From: Spirulina sp. | GTDB taxonomy: Bacteria; Cyanobacteriota; Cyanobacteriia; Phormidesmidales; Phormidesmidaceae | Length of the DNA: 64,000 nt | Direction of reading: 5' to 3' | Assembly (NCBI GenBank): GCA_044070495.1 | Contig: JBIPSI010000012.1 | Span: forward strand, 89,808 to 153,807 | In this document: in pieces, positions 8,327-26,398 of the stretch | Position numbering within the stretch: the first letter of the stretch is position 1 | Layout of the letters: each line of letters starts with the position of its first letter | Translations under genes and position numbers: made by a program | Notes under the pieces: generated by a model | Databases searched by the model: none | What the model was told of the DNA's origin: nothing | The model's input: only the letters and a program-made list of their open reading frames with translations

Positions 8327-9037
8327 TTAATCAAGATTGGTGTATGTAAATTCAATGCTGCCATCGCGAGTGCTACAGATCGCCGCACGATATTGTCCAC
8401 CAATGCGAGTGACCCCACAAGTACCCTCTTTTTCAGCGGTTTCGCCGTTATACATCACCCCAACTACGCGATAGCTCAAACCATGACCCATCTCAAATTC
8501 AGAGGCCGTGGTGGTCACAAAGGAAAAGGGCTGATTGTCAAAGTAGTAGCTAAAGACAAGGGCACCTTCGGAGGGCATCATGGTCATGCGAAAGGCTTCA
8601 CATTGGAGAGGATTACTGCCTTGGGTATGGCATCGGGTGGGGCGGTTATCGTGATGAATAATTTGGAGATCGTCCGATGCCTGGGCAGTGGCAGAAGGGA
8701 CTGGTGGGGAAGTCACTGGCATAGAACTCGCACTGGGCGCAGGTGCCGGAGGAGCGGCCTGGGGGGCTTGATTTCCACCGCCAATTTGCTGAAGAAAAGA
8801 ATCAACGGTATTGATGGTTTCAATGACCGCACCTGCATCCCGAATAGCATCACCAATTTGGCGAAAAATATTGGCGACTAAAACAGAATCGGATTCAGTG
8901 ACAGATGCAGATTCAGTCCTTTGGGCGGCGGCAACACTAGGAGAGTGCCCCAAAAGGGAAACCAGCAGGATACCGGAGAGGCTGAGTCTATGGGCAAAGC
9001 TGGCACTTTTACGATAACGGGTCGTTAAGAATAGCAT
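8327..9037 (-). CDS. Hypothetical secreted protein (VAN-motif family)
   Basis: Signal peptide, VLVANIFRQIG segment, Pro-rich linker, C-terminal domain with 4 Cys; GAGGA RBS. Confidence 0.75.
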   Translation of the reverse strand: MLFLTTRYRKSASFAHRLSLSGILLVSLLGHSPSVAAAQRTESASVTESDSVLVANIFRQIGDAIRDAGAVIETINTVDSFLQQIGGGNQAPQAAPPAPAPSASSMPVTSPPVPSATAQASDDLQIIHHDNRPTRCHTQGSNPLQCEAFRMTMMPSEGALVFSYYFDNQPFSFVTTTASEFEMGHGLSYRVVGVMYNGETAEKEGTCGVTRIGGQYRAAICSTRDGSIEFTYTNLD

Positions 9038-9085: not shown

Positions 9086-9112
9086 TATTTCTCACCCGTT
9101 TGAGCCTATTCA
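9086..9112 (-). promoter_or_regulatory. Bipartite motif copy TGAATAGG-N12-AGAAATA
   Basis: Plus strand tatttct-cacccgtttgag-cctattca, about 50 nt upstream of the 9037 start. Confidence 0.7.
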
Positions 9113-9174: not shown

Positions 9175-9609
9175 TCAGTGGACGGCTAGCCTCTTCTTCT
9201 TTGTCAAACTGTGGAGGGTATTCACCATAGTCAGGATTGAGGTCATAAAAGCAGCATCACGAGAGAGTATCCTATCCGCAGCCGCCATGTATCGCATAAA
9301 CCCGCTATCGGTCGCGAGATTGTAGCCGCGAGGTGACAAATTAGCCTTTTGTAAGGCTTCATAGCCATGGCGAACCATTACAGCGCAGTTGGATCGAACC
9401 ATCGCGACAATTCCCTGTCCGGACTGCATGGATGAGGGCAACGCCGCTTCGCAGGTGTCCGAAGCATTTTCCATGGCTTCCGATAGATCAGCGATGAAGT
9501 GACTGGGCGCATGGTGTGCTGAAACGTGTTTGGGAATCATCGCACCCAGCGTAAAGGTGCTGGAAATACAGGTAAGAACTATTAGCTTGGTTAGCTTTTT
9601 TATGGGCAT
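9175..9609 (-). CDS. Hypothetical secreted protein
   Basis: 144-aa ORF with signal-peptide-like N-terminus (...KHVSA). Confidence 0.6.
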   Translation of the reverse strand: MPIKKLTKLIVLTCISSTFTLGAMIPKHVSAHHAPSHFIADLSEAMENASDTCEAALPSSMQSGQGIVAMVRSNCAVMVRHGYEALQKANLSPRGYNLATDSGFMRYMAAADRILSRDAAFMTSILTMVNTLHSLTKKKRLAVH

Positions 9610-9666: not shown

Positions 9667-10206
9667 TCAATCCTGTCTACACGCTGCAATTCTGTGTCTT
9701 AGGCAAATGTCTACTTCGTCGCTACTGCTGGAATTATCAGAACTATCCCCATTCTCCAACAACCACAAAATTATTGCGGCGGCGGCCTCCGCCTGGGCAG
9801 CTTGCCGAGCCCGCTGCTCTGCCAGATAGGCCTGCTGCTGTTCAGGGGTGAGGCTTTCAAAGTACTGGCGCTGGCGTTCGGCTTCTAGCTGCTGCTGCTC
9901 AGCCGCCGCTTGACGGATGGCCTCTTGCTGTTGAATCTGCTGTTGTCGAACGGCCTCCCATTCTCGTCGCTCTTGCTCTCGCTGCTGCCGCTCAATTTCC
10001 CGCTGCACTTGTTGGGCACCACGGTTGATGTCTCGGAGAATATTGCCAAGGTTAGCGACCATGACAGGCTCAGACGAATGAGACGTGGTCTGCATGGTGG
10101 CCTGGGTGGCCGCACTGGCAGGGGGCGACCCCACCAATAGGGAGGCCAGCGCTAGGGCGGGCACCCCCAGGGCTAGGGTCAGGTAACGAGGGGATAGATT
10201 CTGCAT
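9667..10206 (-). CDS. Hypothetical secreted Gln-rich coiled-coil protein (VAN-motif family)
   Basis: Signal peptide, VMVANLGNILRDI, FESLTPEQQQAYL. Start placed at MQNL after a GAGGA RBS (ORF track start 10221). Confidence 0.75.
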   Translation of the reverse strand: MQNLSPRYLTLALGVPALALASLLVGSPPASAATQATMQTTSHSSEPVMVANLGNILRDINRGAQQVQREIERQQREQERREWEAVRQQQIQQQEAIRQAAAEQQQLEAERQRQYFESLTPEQQQAYLAEQRARQAAQAEAAAAIILWLLENGDSSDNSSSSDEVDICLRHRIAACRQD

Positions 10207-10249
10207 GGGACATATCCTCATAAATACGTTAGGGTCAATTATTTGCTTC

Positions 10250-10276
10250 TAGTTCTGGGTCAAATAAACTTATTCA
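10250..10276 (-). promoter_or_regulatory. Bipartite motif copy TGAATAAG-N12-AGAACTA
   Basis: Plus strand tagttct-gggtcaaataaa-cttattca. Confidence 0.65.
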
Positions 10277-10370: not shown

Positions 10371-10397
10371 TATTGCTGGAGAACTTCAACCTATTCA
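10371..10397 (-). promoter_or_regulatory. Bipartite motif copy TGAATAGG-N12-AGCAATA
   Basis: Plus strand tattgct-ggagaacttcaa-cctattca. Confidence 0.6.
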
Positions 10398-10688: not shown

Positions 10689-11288
10689 CTAGCGTGAGCA
10701 AACAGGATCGATGTAGCAAACCCATTCTTCACGGCTCATGCCTCGACGGTGGCTGGGGCCAGTCGGTTCATGCTCAGCCCTGGAGGCTTCCACGGCGGCC
10801 CAGCCTTCAAACATGAAGTTCCACAGGCCATTGACCGTGTCCCGCTCTGCCTGCAAAAAAGCCTCTCGTTCTTCGGGGGTTAGGGTTTGCAGAAAGGCTT
10901 CTCGCTCTTGGCGACGGGCTTCTCGGCGGGCGGCATCTTCGGCTCGGCGACGCTGATAATCGTTCGCAAATTCACTACTGTTTTGCTGCCATTGTTCTAG
11001 CCGATCCTGGCGCATTTCCGTGCGTACCTGCGCTCCAGAATGGGGGGTCTGGGTTCTGGGCGTAGCGCGAGGGGCCTGTCCGCCCTGCGTGATACCTTCT
11101 AGGAGTTGCAGTCCATCGTGGACGGTTTGGAAAATATCAAACAGGTTGGCCACCCTAGCCGGATCGTCGGCAGTAGCGGTGCTTTCAGCAGGGGTGACGG
11201 CGGCGAGGCCGGGAACGGTGCCTAGCCAGGAAGCCAGGGCCAAGGTGGGTAGGGCAGCGCCTAGGCGAAACGTGTTGAACCAAGACAT
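10689..11288 (-). CDS. Hypothetical secreted coiled-coil protein (VAN-motif family)
   Basis: Signal peptide, RVANLFDIFQTV, FLQTLTPEEREAFL; same catatcctcata 5' leader as the 10206 gene. Confidence 0.75.
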   Translation of the reverse strand: MSWFNTFRLGAALPTLALASWLGTVPGLAAVTPAESTATADDPARVANLFDIFQTVHDGLQLLEGITQGGQAPRATPRTQTPHSGAQVRTEMRQDRLEQWQQNSSEFANDYQRRRAEDAARREARRQEREAFLQTLTPEEREAFLQAERDTVNGLWNFMFEGWAAVEASRAEHEPTGPSHRRGMSREEWVCYIDPVCSR

Positions 11289-11332
11289 AGACCATATCCT
11301 CATAACGGGGGTTGACTGCGGTCATGGGGATC

Positions 11333-11359
11333 TATTTCTGGGGCAGGCGAACCTATTCA
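11333..11359 (-). promoter_or_regulatory. Bipartite motif copy TGAATAGG-N12-AGAAATA
   Basis: Plus strand tatttct-ggggcaggcgaa-cctattca. Confidence 0.7.
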
Positions 11360-11367
11360 CGGATGGG

Positions 11368-11752
11368 CTAGATTTCTCCAATTTCTTGTATGGCTAGGGC
11401 TAGGAATTGGCCAGCGCGATCAATCTGGTCGGCAGCTTGTGCAACGGTTACAGCGTTTAACTGACCGTAATCACCCATCGTTCGCAGCGCTTGGGCCTCA
11501 ATCAAAAATTGATGAAATATCGTGGGCAGTTGTTGGGTTTTTGCAAATTCTCGTCCGAAGGCAGCAATCACCGCAGAGTGTTTAGAGAAGGAAAGCCCTT
11601 TACCATCTAAAAAAGCCTCCGCGATGTAGAACATTGCGTAGTAAGACCGCTAGACGGCATAGTCTGGATAGTTAGTTGTTGGTCAGGAGCAGTTTTGAGG
11701 CTTCTAGACTTTGTCTGGCCTTTTGCAGGAGTTCCTGTTGCTCTGAGGTCAT
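11368..11752 (-). pseudogene. HEPN-domain toxin pseudogene (MNT-HEPN pair)
   Basis: MTSEQQELLQKARQSLEASKLLLTNN*, a frameshift at a duplicated AACT, then YPDYAV*RSYYAMFY...SKHSAVIAAFGREF. Confidence 0.8.
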
Positions 11753-12069
11753 AATAAAATGCCTTCTTTACGGATGTTGCGAAGCAGGGCTGTATTGCGA
11801 GTTTGATACTGGATATCATCCATAAATAGGCAGGTAATCACGACATCATGATGAAGGGATAAATCGGCTACAACGTTACCCGTTCGCTGGATTTCTTCAC
11901 CTGGATTGATTGGGGACTTGAGCACCACTAAAACATCAATATCGGATTCGGGTGTCGCATTGCCGCGAGATTGGGAACCAAACAGGGTGAGATGGACTAA
12001 GCGATCCCTGTAGATGTCAGAGAGCGCTTGCTTAAGTTGAGCCAAGATAACAGCAAGGGCAGCATCCAT
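11749..12069 (-). CDS. Minimal nucleotidyltransferase (MNT) antitoxin
   Basis: LFGSQSRGNATPESDIDVLVV motif; ATGA overlap with the HEPN gene. Confidence 0.9.
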   Translation of the reverse strand: MDAALAVILAQLKQALSDIYRDRLVHLTLFGSQSRGNATPESDIDVLVVLKSPINPGEEIQRTGNVVADLSLHHDVVITCLFMDDIQYQTRNTALLRNIRKEGILL

Positions 12070-12144
12070 AGAAAAAGCCAGCAAGAAGTTCCTATTTCTA
12101 GGGTAGAAGAGGTTTTGCAAATCAGGTTTAAGGTATTTGTAATG

Positions 12145-12186: not shown

Positions 12187-12990
12187 CTAGGAGGTGATTT
12201 CTTCGCTACAGATGGTGTCGATGAGGGTGGTTTGTAGGGTGGTGAGGGCCGGGGTAAGGTCGGTTTCGTCTACGGAAAAGAGGATGTGCAGGGCATCGGC
12301 GGGCATGTCCTGTTCTAGGAAGTAAGTGGCTTTGGCCTCGGCAATGGCGGCACTATTCGCCCCTTGGGCCACCAAGTCGGTGTGCAATTGGGCGAGGTCG
12401 ATGGTGATTTGGTCGCGATCTGGGCCGTTGGACATGACCCGAAAGGGCAGGATGTAGGTTGGTAGACCTGAGTTCTCGGCACGGGCGGAGGTTTGATAGA
12501 TGCGCCACTCGTAGCGGGTGCCCGGTTCTAGGGGGGTGGCCTCAAAGGGCGCTTTAACCAAAGCATCACCGACGGCATTGGGGGCAACGCTCCAGAGCAC
12601 AAGCGGGGGTGGGTCAATGCGGCGTCGCAGAAAGGGCTGAAATTCCTTCACCTCCATACGACTGACCCGCCCCTGGATCAGGAAAAGGGGTTGGAGATGC
12701 CAGAGGGTATCGTTTCTGCCGGGGTTGAGGATGCAGGTGCGGCTGGGTTCAGCTTCGCTACCCTCCGCTGTTTCGACCCAGCCATCGCCCCTGGAGGTGC
12801 CATCGCGGCCTCGGTTGCGGTCTTCGGGGTCGCGCCGGAAAAATTCGATGATGGTTGGGTCTGGGCTGAGCTGGGTCGGCTCTACCTGGGCGGCGGCGGA
12901 CGGCCCATTAACGAGTATCGAGGCTAACCCTAGGGTCACGGCACCTAGTCCCAGGCTCGCGGTAATCGTGATCGGTCTAATGGGTTGCAT
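12187..12990 (-). CDS. DUF928-like secreted protein
   Basis: Signal peptide, GRDGTSRG motif, LEPGTRYEW; overlaps the CHASE2 gene end, the usual CHASE2-DUF928 arrangement. Confidence 0.65.
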   Translation of the reverse strand: MQPIRPITITASLGLGAVTLGLASILVNGPSAAAQVEPTQLSPDPTIIEFFRRDPEDRNRGRDGTSRGDGWVETAEGSEAEPSRTCILNPGRNDTLWHLQPLFLIQGRVSRMEVKEFQPFLRRRIDPPPLVLWSVAPNAVGDALVKAPFEATPLEPGTRYEWRIYQTSARAENSGLPTYILPFRVMSNGPDRDQITIDLAQLHTDLVAQGANSAAIAEAKATYFLEQDMPADALHILFSVDETDLTPALTTLQTTLIDTICSEEITS

Positions 12991-15361
12991 CCGTATTTCC
13001 TCTTAGACTAGACAAACCATAACACCCCACCACCAGCGACGGCAGCAGCCAGGGCAGCAGCACCGCCCCGCTGATGTAAAGCTGTAACGACAGCAGTCCG
13101 TAGCCAGTGGTGGCCAATCCCAGGCCCAAGCTCACCTGCCAGCGGGGGCGAGGATGGACAGCCAGGTGCAGGCTCAGGGCTTTGCCCAGCCCAGCGGCAA
13201 CGAGAATCAGCCACAGGTCTGGGATGGGCACTACCAGGCGGTTGTTCAGTAAATGGTGAACCATGTAGGCGTGGGCTTCGCCGCCGGTGATGTGGGTGGC
13301 GGGTTGGTTGGCCCGTCGTCGCCAGTGGGCCAGGGCGGGGGGGATGGGCATATTGTCTTCGCCAGCGGCCACCAGTCCGGCGGCATGGTAGCCTCCGGGG
13401 GCCACAACCACCACGGCATTGGTGAGGTCGGGCAGATCGGCGGCATTTTCCCAAAGCTGCCAGGCGGGGATGGTGACAAAGACCCGATCCGGCGGCAGGG
13501 AAAAGTCCATCAAGGGCTGAAGCCACTGTTGCCAAATCCAATCTGAGGCATAGGTGATGGGGTGGAGGGTGGCGCGACGGGGCAGACCCAGATCGTGCTG
13601 TTGGCGGTAGGCGGCGACCTGGTCGGCCAGGGGTGGGCCATCCAAAGCAGGGCGCGGTGCGGCGGGGGCGGTTTGGCGCTGGTGCAAACGGTGGGCCACG
13701 GCCAGTTGATAGCTGAAGGGGTTTTGCAAATGGGGGGCTGAACGCTGGGGCAACATCCGCCACCAGGGCACCCGCACATTGCCCAGCAGCACACGATCCG
13801 GGGCAATGACATGGGGATGGGGCGTCAACCAAGCGCCCCCCTGACGAGCCGTAGCCACCACGGGCCAGATGCCTTGATTGATAGCGGATTCTAGGGCTTG
13901 GCGCAGTTCAGCATCGTGGGCGGGCTGGGCCAAATCGAGGATGTAGTCTAGGCCAATGACCGGGGCTTGGCGACGGCTGATTTCAGCCACAATCGTCGCC
14001 AGCATGGCCCGGTTGATGGGCGTATAGTCCGTCGCCCCCCAGCGAATAAAGCTCTCGCCGTCCACCTGCACCAGCACCACGGGCGGGTTAGCCGGGGGTA
14101 GCTGTCCGGTCAGGTCGCGATACACCGCCTGCGCCGCCACCCGCTGATCCATCAGCCAAGCCTGGGGTACCCAGTTGGCCTCGGCAGGAATTAGGCTAAT
14201 CGCCGCCAGGGCGCTAACGATCAGGGCTTCGCGGCGGGTGGGTTGCCAGCGTCGCCACCGACTACGCCAGCCCGTAGGTTCGAGTTGGTAGGGCACCGAG
14301 GCCGGATGGCGAAACAGCGACGGCACCAGGTAGGCCGAGGGATAGGTGAGGTTTTGCGCTAGCTTGAGGAATTGGCAGGCTCCGCGCAGGGCTGCCTGGA
14401 CGTTTTCGCCACGGGCAAGGCGCTGGAGCAACTGCACTAAAAAGGTTTGGGCCACCTGGTTATGGATCGGCTCCCGCATAACCGCCACCTGGCTGAGGCC
14501 GAGGTTAATCAACCCCTGGGCAATGTCTAGGCCGCTGCACGAATTGAACAGGGCAAACTGAAGCCCCCGCCGCTGGGCCTGTTGCAGAGCGGGGGTGAGA
14601 TCCTGAATCGACAGGGCCAAGTTGGGGGCAATGGCCACCTCGCCCCCCACCCAGGCCGCCTCGTTGCTGTGGCCCGCAAAAAAGAGAATGTCCCAGCCCT
14701 GGGGATCCGCAATAGCCTCGTAGATGCGACGCTTCAGGGCATTGGCCTCCTCCTCCGGCTGCCAGCCCACATAGTGAATGTCCATCACCACTGCCTGGGC
14801 GGCGAGGGCGTTGCGTTCCTCGGTGAAGTTCAGCCCGGTTTCGTCGCCCAAAATCGCCAAGACCCGCGTTTTGCCCCGCCGAAAGGAACGCCGATTCACC
14901 GCCTCGGCCCGAATGGTGGGCGGCGACCGCAAAATCTGCACTGGGGGGCCAAATTCCCAGGTTTCCCAGGGCAACCGAGCCAAGTCCAGCGGCGTGCAGG
15001 TGAGAAATAGCTCCAGCGGGGCGGCGGGATGCGCAGACTGAGCGGCCCTGACAATTTCCTGGCGCAGATCAAACAAATCCCCCTGCCGCAGCCAGCGATG
15101 GAACTCCGACAACAGCCGCGCCTCCGCCTGCCCCAGTTGGCTGTGCCAATCCACCGGAGCCGCCACCACCTGCCCCATCGCCCCGGCCCGCCCCCGCAGG
15201 GCTTGCTTGTAATAGCCCAAATAGGCCCGCCGCCAGGTGTCGTAGAGCGGCAACAGGGTGTCAGGAAAGGCCACCGTCGCCGTGATTCGCTGCCCCTCGC
15301 CCCAGGTGAGATCGAACAGGCCGCTCTGATCGATTTTGTGAACAGTAAGGCGGTAGGGCAT
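12977..15361 (-). CDS. CHAT (caspase-like) protease - TM - CHASE2 - 3TM membrane sensor
   Basis: LPWETWE, ILFFAGHS (His), LFNSCSG (Cys), VMREPIHNQVA; CHASE2 motifs VVLVQVD, VIGLDYILD, GGEAHAYMV. Start at MPYRLTVHKID. Confidence 0.88.
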   Translation of the reverse strand: MPYRLTVHKIDQSGLFDLTWGEGQRITATVAFPDTLLPLYDTWRRAYLGYYKQALRGRAGAMGQVVAAPVDWHSQLGQAEARLLSEFHRWLRQGDLFDLRQEIVRAAQSAHPAAPLELFLTCTPLDLARLPWETWEFGPPVQILRSPPTIRAEAVNRRSFRRGKTRVLAILGDETGLNFTEERNALAAQAVVMDIHYVGWQPEEEANALKRRIYEAIADPQGWDILFFAGHSNEAAWVGGEVAIAPNLALSIQDLTPALQQAQRRGLQFALFNSCSGLDIAQGLINLGLSQVAVMREPIHNQVAQTFLVQLLQRLARGENVQAALRGACQFLKLAQNLTYPSAYLVPSLFRHPASVPYQLEPTGWRSRWRRWQPTRREALIVSALAAISLIPAEANWVPQAWLMDQRVAAQAVYRDLTGQLPPANPPVVLVQVDGESFIRWGATDYTPINRAMLATIVAEISRRQAPVIGLDYILDLAQPAHDAELRQALESAINQGIWPVVATARQGGAWLTPHPHVIAPDRVLLGNVRVPWWRMLPQRSAPHLQNPFSYQLAVAHRLHQRQTAPAAPRPALDGPPLADQVAAYRQQHDLGLPRRATLHPITYASDWIWQQWLQPLMDFSLPPDRVFVTIPAWQLWENAADLPDLTNAVVVVAPGGYHAAGLVAAGEDNMPIPPALAHWRRRANQPATHITGGEAHAYMVHHLLNNRLVVPIPDLWLILVAAGLGKALSLHLAVHPRPRWQVSLGLGLATTGYGLLSLQLYISGAVLLPWLLPSLVVGCYGLSSLRGNTDATH

Positions 15362-15364
15362 GGG

Positions 15365-15416
15365 ATGGCGGAATGGCGGAATGGCGGGATGGCGGGATGG
15401 CGGGATGGCGGGATGG
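15365..15416. repeat. Octamer tandem repeat (atggcggr)x6
   Basis: Directly visible immediately upstream of the CHAT-CHASE2 start codon. Confidence 0.9.
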
Positions 15417-15499
15417 GGCAAAGCGTAGGGCATAACGCCAGGGTGAGACTAGCGCCAGGGCGAAGCAATGCACCATCTACTCACGAAGCAATGCCCTAT

Positions 15500-16723
15500 T
15501 TATTGAACCGGATCCTCTGGGCGAAAGACAAAGGGGGGCCAATGGAGGGTTGCGCCGTTGGGGAGTTGAATGGCCACGGTGAAGGCTTCTTCCCAGGTGC
15601 CGAAGACCTGGACATAGAGGTATTGGGCGGAACTTTGGGCATCGAGGGAACTATCCGCCAGCAGCCCTGTAGCATCGCTGACCTGGAGGCGTACCCCATC
15701 TGGTAGCGTATCGCCGGGGGCTGGCCCTAGGACTAGAAACAGGCACCATTCTGGCTCAGGATGCTCCCACACAGGCCAGATCAGGGCATAGAGCCGCAGG
15801 GGCAATCCGGTGGCCTGGAGATCGGTGTAGGCTCCCCTGGCGGCGGCGGGGATTTCCACTCCGGCGGGGGCCAGTTCGCGCAAAACGGCCTCTAGGGTAT
15901 CGGCGGGGCTTTGTGCGGCCATCAGGGCATGGGAGAGGGCAAGGGGCGGCAACAGGTTCCAGGTCAGGGTTTCGGTAACATGGGCGGTGACCGCATCAAG
16001 CCGATCCTGAAGCCATGGCCCCACATTGATCCATGGCCTGGTGGGCGAATCTGGGACGGATGCCATCGTCGGAGAGGTCGGGGGGGCTGGGGCGGTTTCC
16101 GGTGCCGCCGCCAAAAGCTGATCGGGGTTCAAACAGGTGAGGTAGAGCAAAATCTCCTCCGGTTCGGTATCAAACAGGGCGATGGGCAGGGTGTAGGTGT
16201 CGCCGTTATGGGTCAGGTGGCCGCTGGCTTGGTGGGACAACAGGCGATCCCGGCGTAGGCCACCCAGTATCGTCACCTGGTCGGCTTCTTCGCGCACTTC
16301 GACTAAGAGGTAGATGTGGGCGAAGGATGGTGGGGTGATGGGGTGGTGGGGTGGTGGGGTGGTGGGGTGGTGGGTGGTGGGGTGGTGGGTGGTTTGGGGG
16401 ATGGTGACTTGGTCGTCGCTGAGGCTGCCTTGCACGACTAAACACAGGCGAAAACCGTTGACTTCGGCCTGGATGCCTGTGCCTGGGGGCTGGGTGGGGT
16501 CGTAGGTGAGGGTTAGTCCGGTGCTGCCCTGCCGCAGCCAGTGATCGACCCCCCGTAGCGCCATAGCCCGCAAAAAGGTGAGCCACTGGTGGGCTTCGGG
16601 TTCGGATTGGCCGATTTGCACCGCCCAATCTACCTCTGCCGGGGAGAGGTGAACCGTGGCGGGGTGAAGGCGATCAAACTCGACATCGGGGGCGAGGTCT
16701 GGGAATTCGGGGGAAGCACTCAT
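15500..16723 (-). CDS. DUF1822 family protein
   Basis: FRLCLVVQGS, AHIYLLVEVREE...VTILG, INVGPWLQ, LPDGVRLQVSDATG, YLYVQVFGTWEEAFTV. Confidence 0.8.
   Translation of the reverse strand: MSASPEFPDLAPDVEFDRLHPATVHLSPAEVDWAVQIGQSEPEAHQWLTFLRAMALRGVDHWLRQGSTGLTLTYDPTQPPGTGIQAEVNGFRLCLVVQGSLSDDQVTIPQTTHHPTTHHPTTPPPHHPITPPSFAHIYLLVEVREEADQVTILGGLRRDRLLSHQASGHLTHNGDTYTLPIALFDTEPEEILLYLTCLNPDQLLAAAPETAPAPPTSPTMASVPDSPTRPWINVGPWLQDRLDAVTAHVTETLTWNLLPPLALSHALMAAQSPADTLEAVLRELAPAGVEIPAAARGAYTDLQATGLPLRLYALIWPVWEHPEPEWCLFLVLGPAPGDTLPDGVRLQVSDATGLLADSSLDAQSSAQYLYVQVFGTWEEAFTVAIQLPNGATLHWPPFVFRPEDPVQ
16325..16402. repeat. 7/8-mer ggggtggt-type tandem repeats inside the DUF1822 CDS
   Basis: Encodes TTHHPTTHHPTTPPPHHPITPP. 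Confidence 0.8.
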
Positions 16724-16778
16724 AGGGCATAGACTCGCGATGGGGTGGGTGAGGTAGGAATACATTAGAGTTGAGGGC

Positions 16779-18134
16779 TTAGGGTTGAGGGGGTAAAAAG
16801 GCGTGGATTTCGGTACAGAGGTGCTGGCTAAAGCGGCTTTTTACCGGGCGGGGTTTGGGCGCTTGGGCCTCGGCGGCGGCTTCGGCAATTAGGTCATCCA
16901 CCGTTTCTGCTAACAGGGTTTCTAAGGTTTGATCGATGGCCTGGAGCCGATCCGCCGAGACGTAATTCAGGGCTTCCTGGCGCAGGGTGGCGTGCAGTTG
17001 GGGAATCAGCCGATGGCGCACCTCCGCCCGCAGCCGTTTCAGGTTCAGCAGCCGCGTCACCTGCACCTGGGAACTCAGGCCAATGCGCGGAGCTACGGCC
17101 CCCATGGCCAACCCTTCACACTGGCGCAGATAGAGACCCTGCACGTAGGCGCTGTCCTGGGGTGGGGTGCGCTGGCGAAGCTGGCGCATTTGGTCGGCGA
17201 TCACCTGGCGTAGGGTGCCCCCCAAATGGTGATTCAGGCTGGCCCGATAGCGATCCAAAAAATCCATCTGTTCATCCGGGACTGGGGCCGCTTGGCGGGT
17301 TTGGGCGATGCTTTCGAGTTCAGAGTCGTCCTGGGGTTGGTAAAGCTGGGGATGTCCACCCCGTCCGTGGATGCGGTATTGCCGGAGTTGGGTGGCCAAC
17401 TGCCGCAGATTGGCCTTCACCTGTTTGGGGGAGCGGGTGGAATCCATGGCCTGCAATTGGTCGGGGCTGGGTTCTGGACAGCGTCCGGCCTTACCCTGTT
17501 GTCGCTGGCGCAGCCGATCCTGGCGATAGACCCGATGGTAGCTCTCCAGCAGGGCCACCGCCTGATCGACCTCGTAGGTGCTGCACAGATGATAGTCGCG
17601 TAAAATGCGCTGCACCTGGGCGGGGGTGGTGTCGTTCAAAATCGCCCAATCGCTGGCCTGGTATAGTCCCTTTTCTAGCAGCCATTGGTTGAGGTCGGGA
17701 TGGGTTTTGGTGAGGCGATGGCTCCAGGCACTGAGACGCCCCTTGGTGGGGTCGTAGCTCTCCAAAATCCGCAGGGTGAAGGGCTGATGGCGGGGGCGAG
17801 GGCGTCCATCATCCTCTAAAACCAGGGGCAGCAGGTCGGCGGTGGTAAAGCCGTAGCGTTCTCCATGGCGCTGGGCCAACCCCATACAGCAACTCCGAAT
17901 CTGGTGGGTCACCCAACCGCGCAAGCTCAACTGGGCCAGATCGGCCTCCGCCTGCCCCCTCTGCCAACGGTCAAACAGCGCCCGCTGAAGCTGGGCTTCC
18001 TGCTCCTCCAGGTTGTCTAACCAAGGGGCGAAGGCCTCCTGAAGCCAGGGTTTCACCGTCGCCAGTTCCAGGGTTTGAAGCTGGCCTCCACTGGTGAGCC
18101 GCACCAGGTGCCAATATCGTGAAGCGTTATTCAT
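16779..18134 (-). CDS. Sigma-70-like (region 2 / region 4-like) regulatory protein
   Basis: ILESYDPTKGRLSAW resembles sigma region 2; LYLRQCEGLAMGAVAPRIGLSSQVQVTRLL resembles a region 4 HTH; sits upstream of DUF1822. Confidence 0.55.
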   Translation of the reverse strand: MNNASRYWHLVRLTSGGQLQTLELATVKPWLQEAFAPWLDNLEEQEAQLQRALFDRWQRGQAEADLAQLSLRGWVTHQIRSCCMGLAQRHGERYGFTTADLLPLVLEDDGRPRPRHQPFTLRILESYDPTKGRLSAWSHRLTKTHPDLNQWLLEKGLYQASDWAILNDTTPAQVQRILRDYHLCSTYEVDQAVALLESYHRVYRQDRLRQRQQGKAGRCPEPSPDQLQAMDSTRSPKQVKANLRQLATQLRQYRIHGRGGHPQLYQPQDDSELESIAQTRQAAPVPDEQMDFLDRYRASLNHHLGGTLRQVIADQMRQLRQRTPPQDSAYVQGLYLRQCEGLAMGAVAPRIGLSSQVQVTRLLNLKRLRAEVRHRLIPQLHATLRQEALNYVSADRLQAIDQTLETLLAETVDDLIAEAAAEAQAPKPRPVKSRFSQHLCTEIHAFLPPQP

Positions 18135-18246
18135 AGCAGGGCAAACATTCTGCCTATCACAGTAAGTTGAACGGTCTCTCAACATCCCTCTACCCGTGGG
18201 AGAGGGATTTAGGGTAAGGGCTAGTTCGGCTAAAGCTGTTCTACCG

Positions 18247-18273
18247 TATTTCTGAGCAGGGAAGACCTATTCA
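18247..18273 (-). promoter_or_regulatory. Bipartite motif copy TGAATAGG-N12-AGAAATA upstream of the sigma-like operon
   Basis: Plus strand tatttct-gagcagggaaga-cctattca. Confidence 0.7.
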
Positions 18274-18442
18274 CCGGAAGGAGAAAGGTTTAGCGTTCTG
18301 GGGTGCAGTGGCTATGATAGACAGCAGTTGTTGGCGCGCCCTTAGCCCCCGCCATGGAACATCGGGCGTAGCCCTGGCCCACGGTGCCCCCTAGCCCATC
18401 GTTCTAGGCAAGGCCATTCCCTGAGCAATCCTTGGTTGAACC

Positions 18443-18574
18443 ATGAATGCCGTCGAAATCGAAGAAGCCGTTTCCCAACTGGCCGAAGCCCCCTTTGACC
18501 CCGAAGCGTTTCCCTTTGCCTTCCTGGAAGCCTTTGGCAATAAGGCCACCATGATCAAGAAGCTCAGGAGATAG
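18443..18574 (+). pseudogene. N-terminal fragment of a type IIG/IIL (YeeA/MmeI-like) RM methyltransferase
   Basis: MNAVEIEEAVSQLAEAPFDPEAFPFAFLEAFGNKATMIKKLRR*. Confidence 0.7.
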
Positions 18575-18662
18575 TATTCGTATCAACGATCAGTGGCGCA
18601 TTTGTTTTTTGTGGACAGATGAAAATAATGCAGATCAAGTTGAAATTGTAGATTATCACTGA
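18573..18662 (+). pseudogene. higB: C-terminal fragment of HigB toxin
   Basis: SIRINDQWRICFLWTDENNADQVEIVDYH*. Confidence 0.85.
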
Positions 18663-18670
18663 GAACGGCT

Positions 18671-18980
18671 ATGGATAACGCACGTCTGTCAAATATTCAC
18701 CCCGGCGAAATTCTACGGCTAGAATTTCTAGAGCCGCTTTTCTAAGGCCGCTTGATATTACACCCTACCAATTAAGTAAAGATATTGGTGTAGCCCAGAC
18801 GCGAATTAGCGAAATTTCATCTGAAAAGCTCTAAAAAGCGCAGCATTACAGCCGATACATCCCTGCGACCATCAAAATATTTTAGCAATAGCGCTCAGTT
18901 TTGGATGAACCTACAGTCTCAGTACGATTTACGCCAAGCCTAGGAAGAAAACAAAGAAATTTACAAACATATTCCTGAAC
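18671..18980 (+). pseudogene. higA: HigA antitoxin pseudogene
   Basis: IHPGEILRLEFLEPL...ITPYQLSKDIGVAQTRISEI...KRSITADTSLR...QFWMNLQSQYDL, with frameshifts and stops. Confidence 0.85.
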
Positions 18981-19049
18981 AACAACAACTGTGTATAAAT
19001 CGAACAGGGTTTCGCTGCCGTCTCCTAAGGTAACGATGTCGAAGGCACT

Positions 19050-19328
19050 TCAAGATAAGTTGGGCTCTTCCGGGTTCAGGGTGATGGCGGCTTGTTCTCC
19101 TGGGTCAAGGGTATTGAGGGTTGGATCAACTTCGGGAACAGATTGCACGGTAAGCCAGGAAGGAGGTTTGGCAATCCATTGTTGGAGAATGAGGGGAGCA
19201 TCAGGGTCGATCATTTCATCTCGAACAACATCGGGAATGATGATTTTCTGAAATAATTGGGGCAGGAGATGAACCTGGCCAATCAGCAGTAGATAGTTGA
19301 TGGGCGAGGTATCGGAAACGACAATCAT
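19050..19328 (-). pseudogene. DUF3368 (PIN-like) toxin, C-terminally truncated
   Basis: MIVVSDTSPINYL...LDPGEQAAITL; the expected LIDE...G tail is missing. Confidence 0.75.
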
Positions 19329-19603
19329 GAAGCACTGTGAACTTGCTTTTCGCGGAGTTGACGGAGAGTGCCACGGTCTTGCTCTAAATCTGCCTCGTCG
19401 TAATGTAGTTCAACATTATGCTGCTTTAAGAAATTATCTACGGCCCAACGAGAGGGTAAGCCTAGTATGTGACCCACTTCGGCACTGGTAATTTTTTCTG
19501 CTTGGTAGGCTTGTATTGTAAGGGCTTCTAGAATTTCGCGGGAAAGGTTGTCTGGGTTAAAGTATTGAGCCAGTGAATCAGGCAGATCGAGAATGATTTG
19601 CAT
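19325..19603 (-). CDS. UPF0175 family antitoxin
   Basis: LTIQAYQAEKITSAEVGHILGLPSRW...YDEADLEQD; ATGA overlap with DUF3368. Confidence 0.85.
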   Translation of the reverse strand: MQIILDLPDSLAQYFNPDNLSREILEALTIQAYQAEKITSAEVGHILGLPSRWAVDNFLKQHNVELHYDEADLEQDRGTLRQLREKQVHSAS

Positions 19604-19682
19604 AGGGGAACCCCGTATATTCATACATCTTCAAGCAAGTGAGTGACCAGAACTGCTAAGGGTTTTCAGGCAAAATTAATCA

Positions 19683-19919
19683 TCAATTCTCGATAGTCTC
19701 TAGCAATTTTGCTTGAACTTCTTTGGACAATTCCACAATCACAAACCGTTTTTGTGGATAAAGATAGTCTTCGCCAGATTCATCAATGACTCGTAGACAT
19801 TCGACTTCCGCTGCTTTTGTATCTGGTAAGACTCGATAAATCTTCCATGCCTCCAGATCACTATCTTCTTCAGCGGCAATACAGATGGCAAATTTGATGT
19901 TTGAATCTATGGTATACAT
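19683..19919 (-). CDS. Conserved small hypothetical protein (IDESGEDYLYP)
   Basis: 78-aa acidic ORF, 5 nt downstream of the 20164 gene. Confidence 0.8.
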   Translation of the reverse strand: MYTIDSNIKFAICIAAEEDSDLEAWKIYRVLPDTKAAEVECLRVIDESGEDYLYPQKRFVIVELSKEVQAKLLETIEN

Positions 19920-19924
19920 CGTTT

Positions 19925-20164
19925 TTAGTCCAGGATACGCTTAACTTTCATTTTGCGCCGACCTACCCCGTGAGCTTCATACCAGTGCAGTTCGGCTTGG
20001 CAAACCTCTCCATTGGAAAACTGGACTAAGCCAGTACCTTTCAATTTGCGCCAGCGACGACCTCCAAATTCATCCTTAAGTCTTCGCAGTTCTCGAATTG
20101 ACAGATTGACGGCGATAACTTCAATGTCTGTCAGTTTACTAATTAGCTCAAAGTCACTCTCCAT
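19925..20164 (-). CDS. Conserved small basic hypothetical protein (WRKLKG...AELHWYEAHG)
   Basis: 79-aa ORF forming a bicistron with the next gene. Confidence 0.8.
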   Translation of the reverse strand: MESDFELISKLTDIEVIAVNLSIRELRRLKDEFGGRRWRKLKGTGLVQFSNGEVCQAELHWYEAHGVGRRKMKVKRILD

Positions 20165-20323
20165 GATTCAAGGTCAACATTCTGTGGGTAATCTTGAAGC
20201 ATCATAATCATTCTTCATGTTGTTAGTTCTAATTTGGTAATCAATTAGGCGTTGTCGGCAGCGGGTTAAGGATCTGTGAGCAACTCAGAGTAAACTGAGA
20301 CACCTGAAATTTTTGTAGATCTG

Positions 20324-21319
20324 CTAATGCTCCAACCAAATGAACGGCTCGTTATTGTCCTTCAATAGATTTTGCCAGTGATTAAACTTCTCACGCGGAG
20401 TTATCTTTAGGATCTCGTAATGAACATTGACATTGTTGCTTGTATTTTTACATCCGTAGCGGTAAAGATCTAGAATGACATCAAGTTCACCTTCAGTAAA
20501 CTTATGTTCTTTGCTTAAAAGATACTGTTCGTACAATTCATCCAAGATGCCTGGACTGCAAAGTTGGCTTGAAAAATTCTCTAATGTTTGAAGCCTCAGC
20601 ATCGGATAGTCAAGACTCTTGTCTTGCAAATAGCGTTTTGTTAAATATGCTTTAAGTAAATTGGCATAAGCACTTTGCAAGCATTGTGTTAAATCAAGAG
20701 AAACATTAATTTCATCTCTGTCAAGATGCTTTCCAATCAGCATCTCTATTAGAGACTCAATACTATTAAATAATTTTGAGATTTCGTTGTCTAGATACTC
20801 ACTCCATCCTAAATCTTCCATCTGATGTATGAGCGTTATACAATCTTTTATATGACACCTAACGTCTGCGACTAGCTTGCTTAACTCATGCTTGATGAGT
20901 TCTGAAATTTTGGTGTCTAAAGCGCGAATCTGATTGCAAATCTCATTTAGTTTTTTGTCAATTTTATTTAACTGATATACGACAACTGCAAAGCCTACTA
21001 CAGCCACTCCTAGCGTCGTGCCAGAAATAGCTAGGTTGAGAGTACTCAAGGCTTTAATTTCTTGGGTTAGACTGATTATTTTATTAAGTTTTGAAGTATC
21101 GCCAACCATTTTAAGTCCAGCACCTGCGACGGCAAAGGCTGGATGTACGGCACCAAGAGCACCTAATGTCTGTGGGCCAGCGGCTTTCGCCATTTCAAGA
21201 TGAGCAACTATCGCTTTAGTTCCTGCATCTCTCACCACTCCACTTTCAATTATAATTTTTCCTGCTTTTAAGGCAGATTCTAAATGCTGAGGTAGTTGAA
21301 GCAAGTATTGATATGTCAT
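20324..21319 (-). CDS. Hypothetical protein with hydrophobic helix and coiled coil
   Basis: 331-aa AT-rich ORF; ATGA overlap with the upstream gene. Confidence 0.8.
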   Translation of the reverse strand: MTYQYLLQLPQHLESALKAGKIIIESGVVRDAGTKAIVAHLEMAKAAGPQTLGALGAVHPAFAVAGAGLKMVGDTSKLNKIISLTQEIKALSTLNLAISGTTLGVAVVGFAVVVYQLNKIDKKLNEICNQIRALDTKISELIKHELSKLVADVRCHIKDCITLIHQMEDLGWSEYLDNEISKLFNSIESLIEMLIGKHLDRDEINVSLDLTQCLQSAYANLLKAYLTKRYLQDKSLDYPMLRLQTLENFSSQLCSPGILDELYEQYLLSKEHKFTEGELDVILDLYRYGCKNTSNNVNVHYEILKITPREKFNHWQNLLKDNNEPFIWLEH

Positions 21320-22143
21320 GTTAGTTGACCCTTTCTTCCTCTTTCTTTGAGTTCATTTTGATAACGAAAAGTGTAAATAGAAAGAATTGCCTGAATAAAG
21401 CGCAGTTTCTCTTGTTCACTGCCGAGCTTAATTAAGGATAGAGCAATACTTAATCCTCCAGTGCCAATGGCAATCCCCCATCCGATAGGCCCTGCTAATG
21501 CGCCAAGAACAGCTACTTGGAGTGCTTTCTGTCCCATTACATTAATCAAAAGCCATGCCATAAATCCTCGTGTAAGCTGCTGAAGCATTACGCCAGCAAC
21601 AAGTGGAACGGCAATGGGGACAGCGCCACCAATACCACCAAAAAGCAAATAATAGACTGAATTATTAATTTCTTGCTCTGTGAATTTCCGATTATACCTT
21701 CCTTCTAGATCCTTTTTTACCGTATCAACAAATTTATCTTTATCCTGATCGCTAGATTCTTTCCAAAGAAGTAAAAATATATCTCTAGCAACCGTAACCA
21801 TTAAATCAGAGTCATTCAACTTATCTTTAGAATCTAGTGCTTTTAGATCTTTGACTACCTGATCTCTCTGAGATTGATTCTCAGGCTTGACTGTTTTCTT
21901 ACCTAAAACTTCTAGAACGTAATCTCTCCACAGAACAAGAACTCTATAGGACTCTGAAGGTAGTTTCTGCTTTGCTGAAGCATAATGCTCTCTGAGTTTA
22001 GTTTTTATTCTTGCATTAAGATGGCTCTTCTGATTAATTTCATTGAATGATTGATACTCTTTAGCCTTGTTAACACCTAGAGTTTCTGCTACTGATTTAA
22101 GTTGATCTAGCTGTAAATCATTTATTGTCGCAAATAAACTCAT
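21316..22143 (-). CDS. Hypothetical membrane-associated protein (YaaW-like Gly-rich helices)
   Basis: 275-aa AT-rich ORF, LGALAGPIGWGIAIGTGG; GAGG RBS. Confidence 0.75.
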   Translation of the reverse strand: MSLFATINDLQLDQLKSVAETLGVNKAKEYQSFNEINQKSHLNARIKTKLREHYASAKQKLPSESYRVLVLWRDYVLEVLGKKTVKPENQSQRDQVVKDLKALDSKDKLNDSDLMVTVARDIFLLLWKESSDQDKDKFVDTVKKDLEGRYNRKFTEQEINNSVYYLLFGGIGGAVPIAVPLVAGVMLQQLTRGFMAWLLINVMGQKALQVAVLGALAGPIGWGIAIGTGGLSIALSLIKLGSEQEKLRFIQAILSIYTFRYQNELKERGRKGQLT

Positions 22144-22224
22144 ATCTTGACCTCAAAGAGATTTTGACTCCAGGAATTTGACTCCAGAGAATATCTTTTC
22201 AAGATTTTCTGGTATTCTAACGAA

Positions 22225-22563
22225 TCAAGCCACTGCGAAACCTGTATGCTGTCGTATTCTAGGATGACGGAAACCTAATACAATATCTTTTCTAGAAACC
22301 CCTGCCTGCATTAAATCTGTGGCTACTCCTTCTTCAGTGTCATCATATTGCACCCAAACCTTATCGCCAACTAAGCTGATGTGGATTGGGGTTGAGTGAA
22401 GGTAACGATCACCGTTCCAGCCCATATCTAGAATCAGGTATTGTCCTCGTTCATCATCAAAGACGAGTTGAGAGGTGTAACCATCAGGCAATGCGGCACG
22501 ATAATCAGCGTGATTTTGCAAAACTTTTTTGATGATGGCTTGGTATCTCAGTCGGGTATCCAT
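22225..22563 (-). CDS. xisI: XisI protein
   Basis: KVWVQYDDTEEGVATDLMQAGVSRKDIVLGFRHP. Confidence 0.95.
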   Translation of the reverse strand: MDTRLRYQAIIKKVLQNHADYRAALPDGYTSQLVFDDERGQYLILDMGWNGDRYLHSTPIHISLVGDKVWVQYDDTEEGVATDLMQAGVSRKDIVLGFRHPRIRQHTGFAVA

Positions 22564-22967
22564 TGTACAATTGCCTCACTTTCATCATCGAAGACCAATA
22601 ATTTGACTATCTGATTTTTGAGTAATACCTGTCCTAATTCTATCGTGAACACACTGTTGAAGGTTGGTTGAGTTACGGCTAGATAAAGGCTACGCTCGAT
22701 GCCCATTTCATTGAGAATCTGACGATACAGAACATACTGTCCTAGTGCCTGTTCCAAATCTCTAACATCTGACTGACCTACAAAGCTTTTTACTTCAACA
22801 ACGATGCGCTGGAATCCCCGTTCAGCGCTAATTAGCCGCTCAGCACCCAAATCAGCCGATAGACGCTTCTTGCCGATCTGAAGTGGAAAGGGATCATGGG
22901 TGATTGTCCATCCATCCTTTTGTAGAGCACGTCTTACAGCGTCATGGTAAATGTCTTTTGCTGGCAC
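22548..22967 (-). CDS. xisH: XisH protein
   Basis: AKDIYHDAVRRALQKDGWTITHDP, DLGAE, VEVKSF, ALGQY. Confidence 0.95.
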   Translation of the reverse strand: MPAKDIYHDAVRRALQKDGWTITHDPFPLQIGKKRLSADLGAERLISAERGFQRIVVEVKSFVGQSDVRDLEQALGQYVLYRQILNEMGIERSLYLAVTQPTFNSVFTIELGQVLLKNQIVKLLVFDDESEAIVQWIPD

Positions 22968-26000: not shown

Positions 26001-26398
26001 TCCTTAATCAGCGGGTAATTCAAGCTAAAAGCAAATCGCCCCAGGGCACGAATTTGCCCCGCCCCCGCCAAAATAGAATCCGTTCCCTTCAGTTCGCTGG
26101 GGAACCATTCATCCAAATAGCTGTAGGCGGAAAGCTTATTCAAAATCGCCTTGGCATCCTCCACCTTGGCCCAAATTTGCTCAATGGGTCGCAGGGAAAT
26201 ATCCTGTTTCAGCACCGTCTGCGCCTCAGATACCCGCGCATTTTGCTCGGTATCGATATGCAGAAATGACACAATTGGCAACGCATCCAACGATCCGTAC
26301 TGCTCCACAATCATGCGGCGGATTTTAATCAAAATCTCTTTGCCAGTTCCCCCCAAACCAATGATGACGGTGGGGGTCATGCCTGTGTATTCGCTCAT
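23042..26398 (-). CDS. Tubulin-like (Tubulin_2/FtsZ-like) GTPase domain protein
   Basis: IIGLGGTG, GAGQIRALGR, SLSGGTGSG, ANAYAALMEL; long helical C-terminal region. Confidence 0.9.
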   Translation of the reverse strand: MSEYTGMTPTVIIGLGGTGKEILIKIRRMIVEQYGSLDALPIVSFLHIDTEQNARVSEAQTVLKQDISLRPIEQIWAKVEDAKAILNKLSAYSYLDEWFPSELKGTDSILAGAGQIRALGRFAFSLNYPLIKDYFNKAKGRIVGHEKFMLDRWKVQLDKGINIFVVCSLSGGTGSGMVLDLAYNLRDWVPISELPQTSAFLVLPGAFSGLGDRVIANAYAALMELNHFSRGDTRFDVQYSDSQSDRITSQSGLDMPFNFTYLVGNSNDKVTFPTLGNVLEMVSQNVFLDFTSGFSQYKKMVRDNVRKHWASPDALGYPQNFMSFGLSSIQFPVERVLNACSARLAGKLVDWWSNPTPAPSAMSDLIRTEILPGLFLAESEHDHQIIDSISMGDNKKPYAKEVADWAAGIRKRRNDLNIPFENLQRFISNEQEKYAPHFHDTGTDPKRWSDYFQKMWDNLSWLIPEKRKELRATVYQMVEDRFRGPKFTRQFLEVLIEVFADFRSKFDQDRQKNWLPKERSAQNALQTLLKQIDNHAQQMLMLNRKKVIEDDFNGIMQALEQIYVSKVEVKARTLGVMLLDGLREEIDQLLVDLTAFETVLANVHTELKDKERVYTRETGGLTVNGILLYDEKEIDAAYSKTVADQEETLCQTLSQQVLEELRLRLFDLYQFDTLKTKDLYERLLGQSMEVFRRRSQLDISTARKFLEQYPTVEMQEAQIKTTFEKSEAFLRLSQEQKKLGWDDKLEKYQKLVGIQGGSKPTDPAVSALLPMIRKTSTVTDKEIRPLNDPYHIYFVQETGAFPLRMIEGMERMRSLYRAVSQADHNPLHTHQDYRQFGDIMPETSNERQARYNLMLANALGLVREEENRVTGFGEIKFTYRDKLTGFDKTDVMGATWQEAEDFLLTDQNRRLAETLDNAIRAIGEQAATKPQKQTLYAQVMTYLQQQEQTLPGGPDSDDYKRIQAAISNFVTTHRLFIPGENPAPQPTAAPQDPVRAHSSAPQPNPASADENLGKYTKLVDTCYRRGNPSATELELLEKFRVKYGVSVEQANAIAAQYQPQDTIEQAAAEYGLMFRAFIENDGEVDLEEQAQLLELQEELGLTNEQVAIIEENVRSELA

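Follow-up and report, generated by a model that had tools for sequence, protein, structure and literature searches.

A four-gene operon of Spirulina sp. encodes, with a probability that we put at roughly 0.55, a conserved cyanobacterial signalling system that runs from the cell envelope to transcription and comprises a receptor protease, a sigma factor, a DUF1822 protein and a regulon marked by a promoter-like motif. The operon lies in a stretch of 64,000 nucleotides (nt) of contig JBIPSI010000012.1 (assembly GCA_044070495.1, positions 89,808 to 153,807 of the forward strand). This whole stretch is referred to here as the window, and positions given without a contig are positions of the window. 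The four open reading frames (ORFs) are co-oriented and follow each other head to tail on the minus strand (16779-18185, 15500-16765, 12977-15433 and 12187-12990). Filamentous cyanobacteria are rich in caspase-like CHAT proteases, and this locus offers a defined interface, predicted by modelling, between the sigma factor and its partner, a catalytic cysteine, a motif of fixed spacing and three adjacent putative target genes, which makes the system directly testable.

Organization and conservation of the operon

The first gene (16779-18134, minus strand; ORF open to 18185) encodes a divergent sigma-70-like protein of 451 amino acids (aa). The second (15500-16765, minus strand), separated from it by a gap of 13 nt, encodes a DUF1822 protein of 421 aa, the predicted partner of the first. 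The product of the third gene (12977-15361, minus strand; ORF open to 15433) combines an N-terminal constant region, a CHAT/caspase-like domain, a transmembrane (TM) segment, a CHASE2 domain and C-terminal TM segments. The fourth gene (12187-12990, minus strand), whose start overlaps the end of the third by 14 nt, encodes a putatively secreted DUF928-like protein of 267 aa that is divergent from the Pfam model. None of the four proteins receives a name from NCBIfam.

Relatives of the operon were sought in one genome per species. In this set 430 stretches encode a relative of gene 1, and the best 80 of these loci, all of them cyanobacterial, were analysed by classifying their ORFs with profiles made from the copies of the Spirulina sp. 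genome itself. The complete set of four genes is found in 40 of the 80 loci. Six loci have three genes, no relative of gene 4 being found there (in four of the six there is room for it), and 15 have no more than the sigma-like and DUF1822 genes, followed by 2.6 kb or more of available sequence. The sigma-like gene stands without DUF1822 despite room in four loci, and 15 are too short for judgement. In the loci with room, DUF1822 directly follows the sigma-like gene in 61 out of 65, and CHAT-CHASE2 is found downstream in 46 of these 61. The four-gene operon is real and more than a chance association; the four co-oriented genes described in the initial annotation of this DNA are borne out by the ORF map and by the retention of the block in related loci.

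The same genome carries three such systems, namely the window copy and one copy on each of two other contigs, C16 and C35. The C16 cassette encodes, in order, a sigma-70 family protein, DUF1822, CHAT-CHASE2, DUF928 and a two-partner-secretion (TPS)-domain exoprotein. It has the same gene order and domain set as the window cassette, but its sigma factor passes the Pfam model Sigma70_r4 and its fourth gene passes DUF928, whereas the window copies pass neither; moreover, it is followed by the exoprotein of two-partner-secretion type, and the window cassette by small secreted paralogues. The C35 copy consists of a sigma-like gene 57% identical to gene 1 together with a DUF1822 gene, with CHAT-CHASE2 and a relative of gene 4 located 21.7 kb further. 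Positions 1-44571 of contig C35 form a CHAT-rich island, with at least nine other CHAT ORFs, soluble or TPR-fused, plus a subtilase.

The sigma-like protein

Homologues of gene 1 are about 451 aa long, so the gene probably starts at the ATG at 18134, which is also the end coordinate of the initial annotation. The 120 homologues listed are all unnamed or called 'hypothetical protein', and none has a Pfam domain; Leptolyngbya sp. BL0902 and PCC 6406 are examples of cultured strains with a relative. A search of the PDB sequences with the gene 1 profile (hmmsearch) returned no sigma factor, the best match being a MarR helix-turn-helix (HTH) at E 0.099. By hydropathy, neither gene 1 nor gene 2 encodes a hydrophobic segment.

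A first line of evidence on the identity of the protein is its predicted structure. The AlphaFold (AF2) model is confident, with a predicted local distance difference test score (pLDDT) of 88.9. Foldseek found no match to it at E<=0.001, and 44 of the 50 matches listed are RNA polymerase-sigma entries, with sigmaS 6uu7 (E 0.033, probability 0.90) and sigma32 8hkc (probability 0.94) at the top. In the VIA structural search all 50 matches listed are sigma or RNA polymerase-sigma entries, at Z 6.6-8.2, and matches of the size of a sigma-2 domain include sigmaE 1or7_A (Z 7.0, root mean square deviation (rmsd) 3.0, 92 residues aligned) and sigmaS 7vf9_F (Z 7.2, rmsd 4.0, 101 aligned). According to the tool, Z values under about 13 may reflect a common arrangement of helical proteins, and, as gene 1 stands at 7-8, its fold alone is not decisive.

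A second line of evidence comes from the C16 paralogue. This protein passes Pfam Sigma70_r4, and the family of its type is named 'sigma-70 family' or 'group 3/4 sigma-70' by the sources. When the gene 1 family was compared by hhalign with the C16-type clade, the two aligned with a probability of 97.9% (E 4.6e-13) over 278 columns, which cover the end of region 2, region 3 and the region-4 HTH. The alignment used for the C16-type clade consisted of 38 proteins named sigma-70 family by their sources, many of them with Pfam Sigma70_r4, Sigma70_r4_2 or Sigma70_r2. By BLASTP, gene 1 and the C16 paralogue are only weakly related (E 0.001). An SDW...L motif is common to both clades and is modelled at the interface with DUF1822. 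Fold, paralogue and profile-profile comparison together support the view that gene 1 encodes a very divergent sigma-70-family protein, in line with its initial description as sigma-like.

With regard to the type of sigma factor, the gene 1 model contains a three-helix unit after sigma-2, and the full-length structural matches are group 1-3 sigma factors. For these reasons the protein looks, as modelled, like a sigma-2/3/4 factor with extensions more than a minimal extracytoplasmic function (ECF) sigma factor. The conserved extensions are an N-terminal hairpin (residues 1-41) and a C-terminal helical tail (394-446); in addition, a conserved stretch, LRQYRIHxRGG, precedes a disordered loop.

DUF1822 and its predicted complex with the sigma-like protein

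Gene 2 scores 82.9 bits with the Pfam model of DUF1822 (PF08852; cut-off 25, E 3.1e-23), which agrees with the initial label of the second gene. Its structural model (pLDDT 82.3) comprises two domains, at residues 37-218 and 245-410, with a disordered linker (219-245) between them. Foldseek gave no match to this model at E<=0.001, and the DUF1822 profile found nothing below E 0.0039 among all PDB chains, the chains listed being major histocompatibility complex (MHC) chains and one lyase. In the exhaustive structural search, the best matches of the N-terminal domain are restriction-endonuclease-like folds, with D212 (2w8m_B; Z 9.1, rmsd 3.5, 125 aligned) at the top, followed by DpnI (Z 7.8), I-Ssp6803I (7.4), NhoI (6.9), Hjc (6.2) and PvuII (6.0), while the C-terminal domain matches beta-sandwiches at Z of about 6-7. 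Two further readings of the protein were rejected. The strands of the N-terminal domain have no invariant or near-invariant Asp or Lys column, so nuclease activity is unlikely and an active nuclease was discarded; and the model has no helical repeat, which argues against the description of DUF1822 as a TPR protein (Kaur et al., 2021) in the case of gene 2.

Prediction of a sigma:DUF1822 complex, which had been suggested as a check for this locus, gave a positive score. The interface score (ipSAE) was 0.71, 0.70 and 0.70 in the runs, against 0.01 for the best control; the mark applied to this score is reached by 116 of 157 solved complexes and by 2 of 215 mismatched pairs, rates that apply here only roughly, as own alignments of 48 rows were used. 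The runs share at least 39% of their contacts, with a partner pLDDT of at least 67. By sequence DUF1822 has no relative among solved structures, and the score therefore does not go back to a complex that the predictor already knew. The interface is formed by residues 160-219 and 250-257 of the sigma-like protein and residues 42-65, 112-118 and 157-162 of DUF1822, and it includes invariant or near-invariant columns on both sides, namely S161, N167, D168, T169, R207 and C219 of the former and Q60, W61, E159 and E160 of the latter. The prediction supports binding of the gene 1 protein to DUF1822.

Gene 2 also contains, in frame, a tandem array of an octanucleotide (TGGTGGGG, 8.5 copies, 16328-16393) that encodes a His/Pro/Thr-rich loop. 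This loop has low pLDDT and is five residues shorter in the 82%-identical orthologue of the closest relative, L011. Adding or removing one unit would change the reading frame. Octamer arrays with at least four perfect copies number only 11 in the 5.3-Mb genome.

The receptor protease and its putative exported partner

In the product of gene 3, Pfam recognizes a CHAT domain (residues 214-353; 28.8 bits against a cut-off of 24) followed by a CHASE2 domain (residues 426-745; 51.1 bits against 26.3). The caspase-like dyad lies in the motifs FAGHS (residue 252) and FNSC (residue 296); neither His255 (14669-14671) nor Cys299 (14537-14539) varies in an alignment of 47 CHAT-CHASE2 proteins, made up of the window copy, one paralogue and 45 proteins from related loci. 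A hydrophobic segment at 404-422, preceded by an Arg-rich stretch, parts CHAT from CHASE2, and additional hydrophobic segments follow CHASE2 at 733-807. From this arrangement the protease half should be cytoplasmic and CHASE2 periplasmic. Pfam matches, hydropathy and the invariance of the dyad thus agree with the order proposed initially, with the dyad on the N-terminal side and CHASE2 after the TM segment.

The gene 3 ORF opens with 24 codons formed by an 8-bp tandem array (GGGATGGC, 6.9 copies, 15362-15416) directly upstream of Met25, and conserved columns begin at about residue 29; because of both features the true start is probably Met25, at 15361. Strong conservation across the 47 sequences extends over residues 29-190, which would fit a constant N-terminal module, comparable to the EACC2 domain discussed below.

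The assignment of gene 4 is less direct. The initial annotation labelled it DUF928, a label that does not stand at the Pfam threshold: the Pfam scan gave no DUF928 match at E<=0.1, and a genome-wide search with PF06051 at E<=1 recovered four other copies and missed gene 4. What stands is a divergent relationship, which becomes visible through the orthologues. Sub-cut-off DUF928 matches in consistent register are found in 13 of 34 syntenic orthologues (best 24.2 bits against a cut-off of 26). In an exhaustive profile search, the gene 4 profile reached 473 cluster representatives at E<=0.001, and of the 47 scanned among the 150 listed, 20 match DUF928 at E<=0.01 and five pass the cut-off. A BLASTP comparison with the C16 DUF928 protein aligns only the signal/RGD region (E 0.02), and a word-indexed search returned 10 close relatives only, none with a Pfam domain. 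Judged by these matches, gene 4 is a divergent branch of the DUF928 lineage and not a Pfam member. Its product has a single N-terminal hydrophobic segment (residues 9-27) ending in AAAQ, consistent with export.

The coupling of CHASE2 with DUF928 that had been anticipated finds its counterpart in genomic pairing only: all six full-length DUF928-type genes of this genome lie directly downstream of a CHASE2-encoding gene. A CHASE2-DUF928 partnership is supported by this association.

The promoter-like motif and its putative regulon

The regions upstream of gene 1 and its relatives contain a bipartite motif, GAATARG-N12-AGNNATA, in which the sequence of the spacer is not conserved; its first block, GAATARG, is found in 25 of 36 upstream regions. 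Rewritten as TGAATA-N16-nnATAn, the motif has the ordinary -35/-10 geometry. The window contains six matches with at most one mismatch, where 0.34 would be expected, and a count of six was not reached in any of 100 shuffles. All six are on the strand of the operon. One of them (GAATAGG-N12-AGAAATA, 18247-18272, minus strand) lies 113 nt upstream of the gene 1 start. Four others (minus strand) precede a group of small genes downstream of the operon: an exact copy at 11333-11358, located 29 nt before a gene for a 204-aa protein (10689-11303, minus strand); an exact copy at 10371-10396 and a second one with one mismatch at 10250-10275, both upstream of a gene for a 184-aa protein (9667-10221, minus strand); and an exact copy at 9086-9111, 48 nt before a gene for a 236-aa protein (8327-9037, minus strand). 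The match at 26116-26141, with one mismatch, lies inside an ORF of 1139 aa for a tubulin-like protein and was taken as chance.

The 204-, 184- and 236-aa proteins are paralogous (E 1e-12 and 4e-7). They belong to no Pfam family, and each has a signal-like N-terminus, so that they are described here as small secreted paralogues. An ESM Atlas look-up of the 204-aa protein gave scores of 0.75-0.78, below the level that the tool regards as meaningful, and no family. An ORF for a signal-bearing protein of 144 aa (9175-9609) follows the 184-aa gene. Genes for homologous small secreted proteins are found again downstream of gene 4 in loci of Nodosilinea and Thainema, and in two of the Nodosilinea loci (L012 and L014) they too stand behind an exact motif.

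In the whole genome the exact motif occurs 12 times at spacing 12, against none at spacings 8, 9, 10, 11, 13 and 15 and two at each of spacings 14 and 16. The clusters of sigma and CHAT genes on contigs C12, C35 and C73 contain 10 of these 12 matches, and both genes for sigma-like proteins of 450 aa are preceded by one. Contig C35 has four exact copies, including one before a TPR gene and one before a TPR-CHAT gene. On C73, one copy is found before a gene for a 207-aa protein, which is followed by a CHAT gene, and the second lies 245 nt from the end of the contig, so that its downstream gene is outside the assembly.

The spacing is equally strict in the related loci (1.08 Mb), where spacing 12 gives 73 matches and the other spacings between 8 and 17 give 0-5 each. 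An exact motif is present in 40 of the 80 loci, and in 30 of these a copy lies upstream of the sigma-like gene at a distance of no more than about 350 nt. In the closest relatives from Nodosilinea, Thainema and Desertifilum (L012-L015), the second block is AGAACTATA and not AGNNATA, so the exact pattern undercounts the motif. The existence of motif-bearing genes, postulated in the initial annotation, is confirmed by the counts in the window, the genome and the related loci, and the co-occurrence of motif and gene suggests that the gene 1 sigma factor is what reads it.

Proposed mechanism and alternative explanations

In the mechanism proposed for the cassette, CHASE2 and the exported gene 4 protein would receive a periplasmic signal, which would activate the cytoplasmic caspase-like CHAT domain of the gene 3 product. 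The gene 1 sigma factor would be held by DUF1822 via the conserved SDWAILNDT/Y..Y...R region after the sigma-2 domain. A cleavage event, with DUF1822, the receptor itself or the sigma factor as a possible substrate, would alter the sigma:DUF1822 complex, and the freed sigma factor would bind RNA polymerase and transcribe its own operon, the three adjacent secreted paralogues and, elsewhere, TPR and CHAT protease genes. Gene order, domains, catalytic dyad, sigma homology and motif enrichment are computed features of this scheme and sigma:DUF1822 binding is predicted by the model, while we infer the signal, the cleavage step with its substrate, the sign of the DUF1822 effect and the reading of this motif by this sigma factor.

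Several results weigh against this scheme. Gene 1 matches no Pfam or NCBIfam family at E<=0.1; among 48 members of its family compared with Pfam only three show a weak Sigma70_r4_2 match (best E 0.012, none above the cut-off), and its profile, searched against its own genome, recovers only itself and the C35 paralogue and misses the canonical sigma factors. The caution that applies to its structural Z scores has been given above. With respect to the motif, no gene follows within 350 nt of one exact copy (C35:27091), two others (on contigs C9 and C20) are away from any cluster, and the exact form was not found in 40 of the 80 related loci, mostly the more distant ones. CHAT-CHASE2 is not downstream in 15 of the 61 loci with room that have the sigma-like and DUF1822 genes, so the receptor is not obligatory for this pair. 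Finally, no anti-sigma fold was found for DUF1822 in the structural search, where the sole anti-sigma entry is the sensor domain of RsgI4, a beta-sandwich match at Z 5.5, and the predicted contact is on the region after sigma-2 and leaves uncovered the classical anti-sigma surfaces, sigma-2 and sigma-4.

These last two points bear on a more specific form of the mechanism, the core of which corresponds to what the initial annotation proposed and which we consider rather unlikely when taken as a whole. It assumes a receptor-borne, CRISPR-independent logic similar to that of Craspase, in which a signal perceived through CHASE2 and the DUF928-like protein would lead CHAT to cut the DUF1822 linker and free the sigma factor for a regulon of secreted proteins and CHAT proteases, that is, a feed-forward proteolytic cascade. 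DUF1822 would then be a new type of sigma-sequestering protein, made of an inactivated restriction-endonuclease fold and a beta-sandwich, and the in-frame octamer array could switch the system by slippage. DUF1822 is attractive as a cleaved anti-sigma factor because of the Csx29/Csx30/CASP-sigma precedent and of its exposed linker; cleavage of DUF1822 by the gene 3 protease is purely hypothetical.

A serious rival, possible although we would not expect it to prevail, is that DUF1822 is a positive adaptor or co-factor which docks the sigma factor to the receptor-caspase or to RNA polymerase, and that the protease cuts itself or a pro-sigma segment but never DUF1822. Since the modelled contact is off sigma-2 and sigma-4 and an anti-sigma fold is missing, DUF1822 may indeed serve as an adaptor or co-factor and not inhibit the sigma factor; nuclease-like domains and beta-sandwiches are common protein-docking modules. 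'Autopeptidase activation' has been proposed for systems of this kind (Kaur et al., 2021; PMC8195603), and the conserved extensions of gene 1 beyond a minimal sigma factor, including the LRQYRIHxRGG stretch, point in the same direction. On the contrary, the strict pairing and the tight spacing of the sigma and DUF1822 genes are also typical of sigma/anti-sigma pairs.

Less probable than either of these is that the cassette constitutes a conflict or programmed-death system, with the caspase as the effector arm of immunity or kin discrimination and the sigma factor inducing secreted toxins or more CHAT proteases. Such caspase systems have been grouped with apoptosis- and immunity-like systems (Kaur et al., 2021; PMC8195603), the motif precedes also a TPR-CHAT gene and a pair formed by a small-protein gene and a CHAT gene, a paralogous cassette is found on a contig with at least nine CHAT ORFs, and toxin-antitoxin-type genes (MNT/HEPN and UPF0175) flank the window cassette. 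However, CHASE2 is an extracytoplasmic sensor domain, here with a secreted partner, which fits sensing of the envelope or of the exterior, and the three local target proteins show no toxin-like family or motif.

It is very unlikely, lastly, that gene 1 no longer encodes a sigma factor but a sigma-derived DNA-binding or scaffold protein, another regulator reading the motif: the failure to pass any curated sigma model and the moderate structural Z scores would agree with this, but the profile-profile link to named sigma-70 proteins spans both the part after region 2 and the region-4 HTH, and the motif is bipartite, has a single fixed spacing with a -35/-10-like form and travels with the gene 1 family across genera.

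Relation to known systems

The envelope-to-transcription signalling system favoured here has an antecedent in the literature. Caspases with a constant N-terminal alpha+beta domain, EACC2, and variable C-termini, including TM plus CHASE2, were described in silico by Kaur, Iyer, Burroughs and Aravind (eLife, 2021; PMC8195603), in whose passages on these proteins gene neighbourhoods with a sigma factor and DUF1822 are reported and a stimulus-induced activation of the peptidase leading to sigma-dependent transcription is proposed. The window cassette shares with those EACC2-caspase systems, as they are presented there, the CHAT domain with His and Cys, the TM-CHASE2 C-terminus and the sigma and DUF1822 neighbours. 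Since the architecture and the sigma-dependent output are both in that text, the core idea is already in print, and the novelty implied by the initial annotation does not hold in that respect. Nonetheless, there are differences from the published passages. The sigma factor is called 'ECF' there, whereas here no sigma model is passed and the best structural matches are group 1-3 sigma factors, and DUF1822 is 'a TPR protein' there and a nuclease-like domain plus beta-sandwich, with no TPR, in our model. The main-text passages refer to no fourth gene, promoter motif or target genes, and the term 'DUF928' is nowhere in the text, although the supplements may list the clade. Specific to this locus are the sigma and DUF928 branches that are invisible to Pfam, the structural description of DUF1822 with its modelled interface, and the motif of fixed spacing with conserved adjacent putative targets. 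A full-text literature search found no experimental paper on the system and none giving the substrate or the output of a receptor-type CHAT protease.

The precedent invoked in the initial annotation, a CHAT protease that cuts a sigma-sequestering protein, is sound: in type III-E CRISPR, Csx29 cleaves Csx30, an inhibitor of a sigma factor (Strecker, 2022; PMC10028731). Judging from the parts of that work relevant here, the Cas7-11/Csx29/Csx30/CASP-sigma system and the window cassette have in common a protease of the CHAT family and a sigma factor with a non-classical binding partner, from which activation of the protease releases it there and would release it here. They differ in the trigger, which is target RNA on the CRISPR effector in type III-E and would be a periplasmic input through CHASE2 here, and in the protease, which is a soluble TPR-CHAT protein there and part of a membrane receptor here. 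Cleavage has been demonstrated for type III-E, whereas in the present case it is hypothetical. The PDB profile search gave no sequence link between DUF1822 and Csx30, and Csx30 was not listed in the fold searches, although the two may be remotely related. No cas gene was detected by Pfam among the four genes and their immediate neighbours, a result obtained with no dedicated search for cas genes or CRISPR arrays. If the sigma factor is indeed released by proteolysis, the principle of a CHAT protease acting on a sigma inhibitor would extend from type III-E CRISPR to ordinary transmembrane signalling.

In pathways of the RseA-sigmaE type, the anti-sigma factor itself spans the membrane and is cut by site-1 and site-2 proteases. 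The proposed system would resemble them in that an envelope signal leads by proteolysis to the release of a dedicated and probably autoregulated sigma factor. Unlike RseA, DUF1822 is predicted to be soluble, and it is the membrane protein that carries the protease, which is of the caspase-like type.

Surroundings of the operon

Between gene 4 and the motif-bearing genes lie a nucleotidyltransferase ORF of the NTP_transf_2 family (11749-12120) and an ORF with a weak HEPN match, below the cut-off (11368-11634); the pair looks like a toxin-antitoxin module of MNT/HEPN type. Upstream of gene 1, the region 18400-22200 has a guanine-plus-cytosine content of 0.39-0.47, against 0.61-0.64 in the operon, and contains small ORFs, including one for UPF0175 (19325-19624). 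In the closest relative, L011, this place is occupied not by a low-GC stretch but by a CHAT-like gene that ends immediately before the motif, a difference which suggests an insertion upstream of gene 1 in the window. Further upstream, a XisH/XisI pair (22548-22967 and 22225-22563) adjoins the gene of the 1139-aa Tubulin_2 protein (23042-26461).

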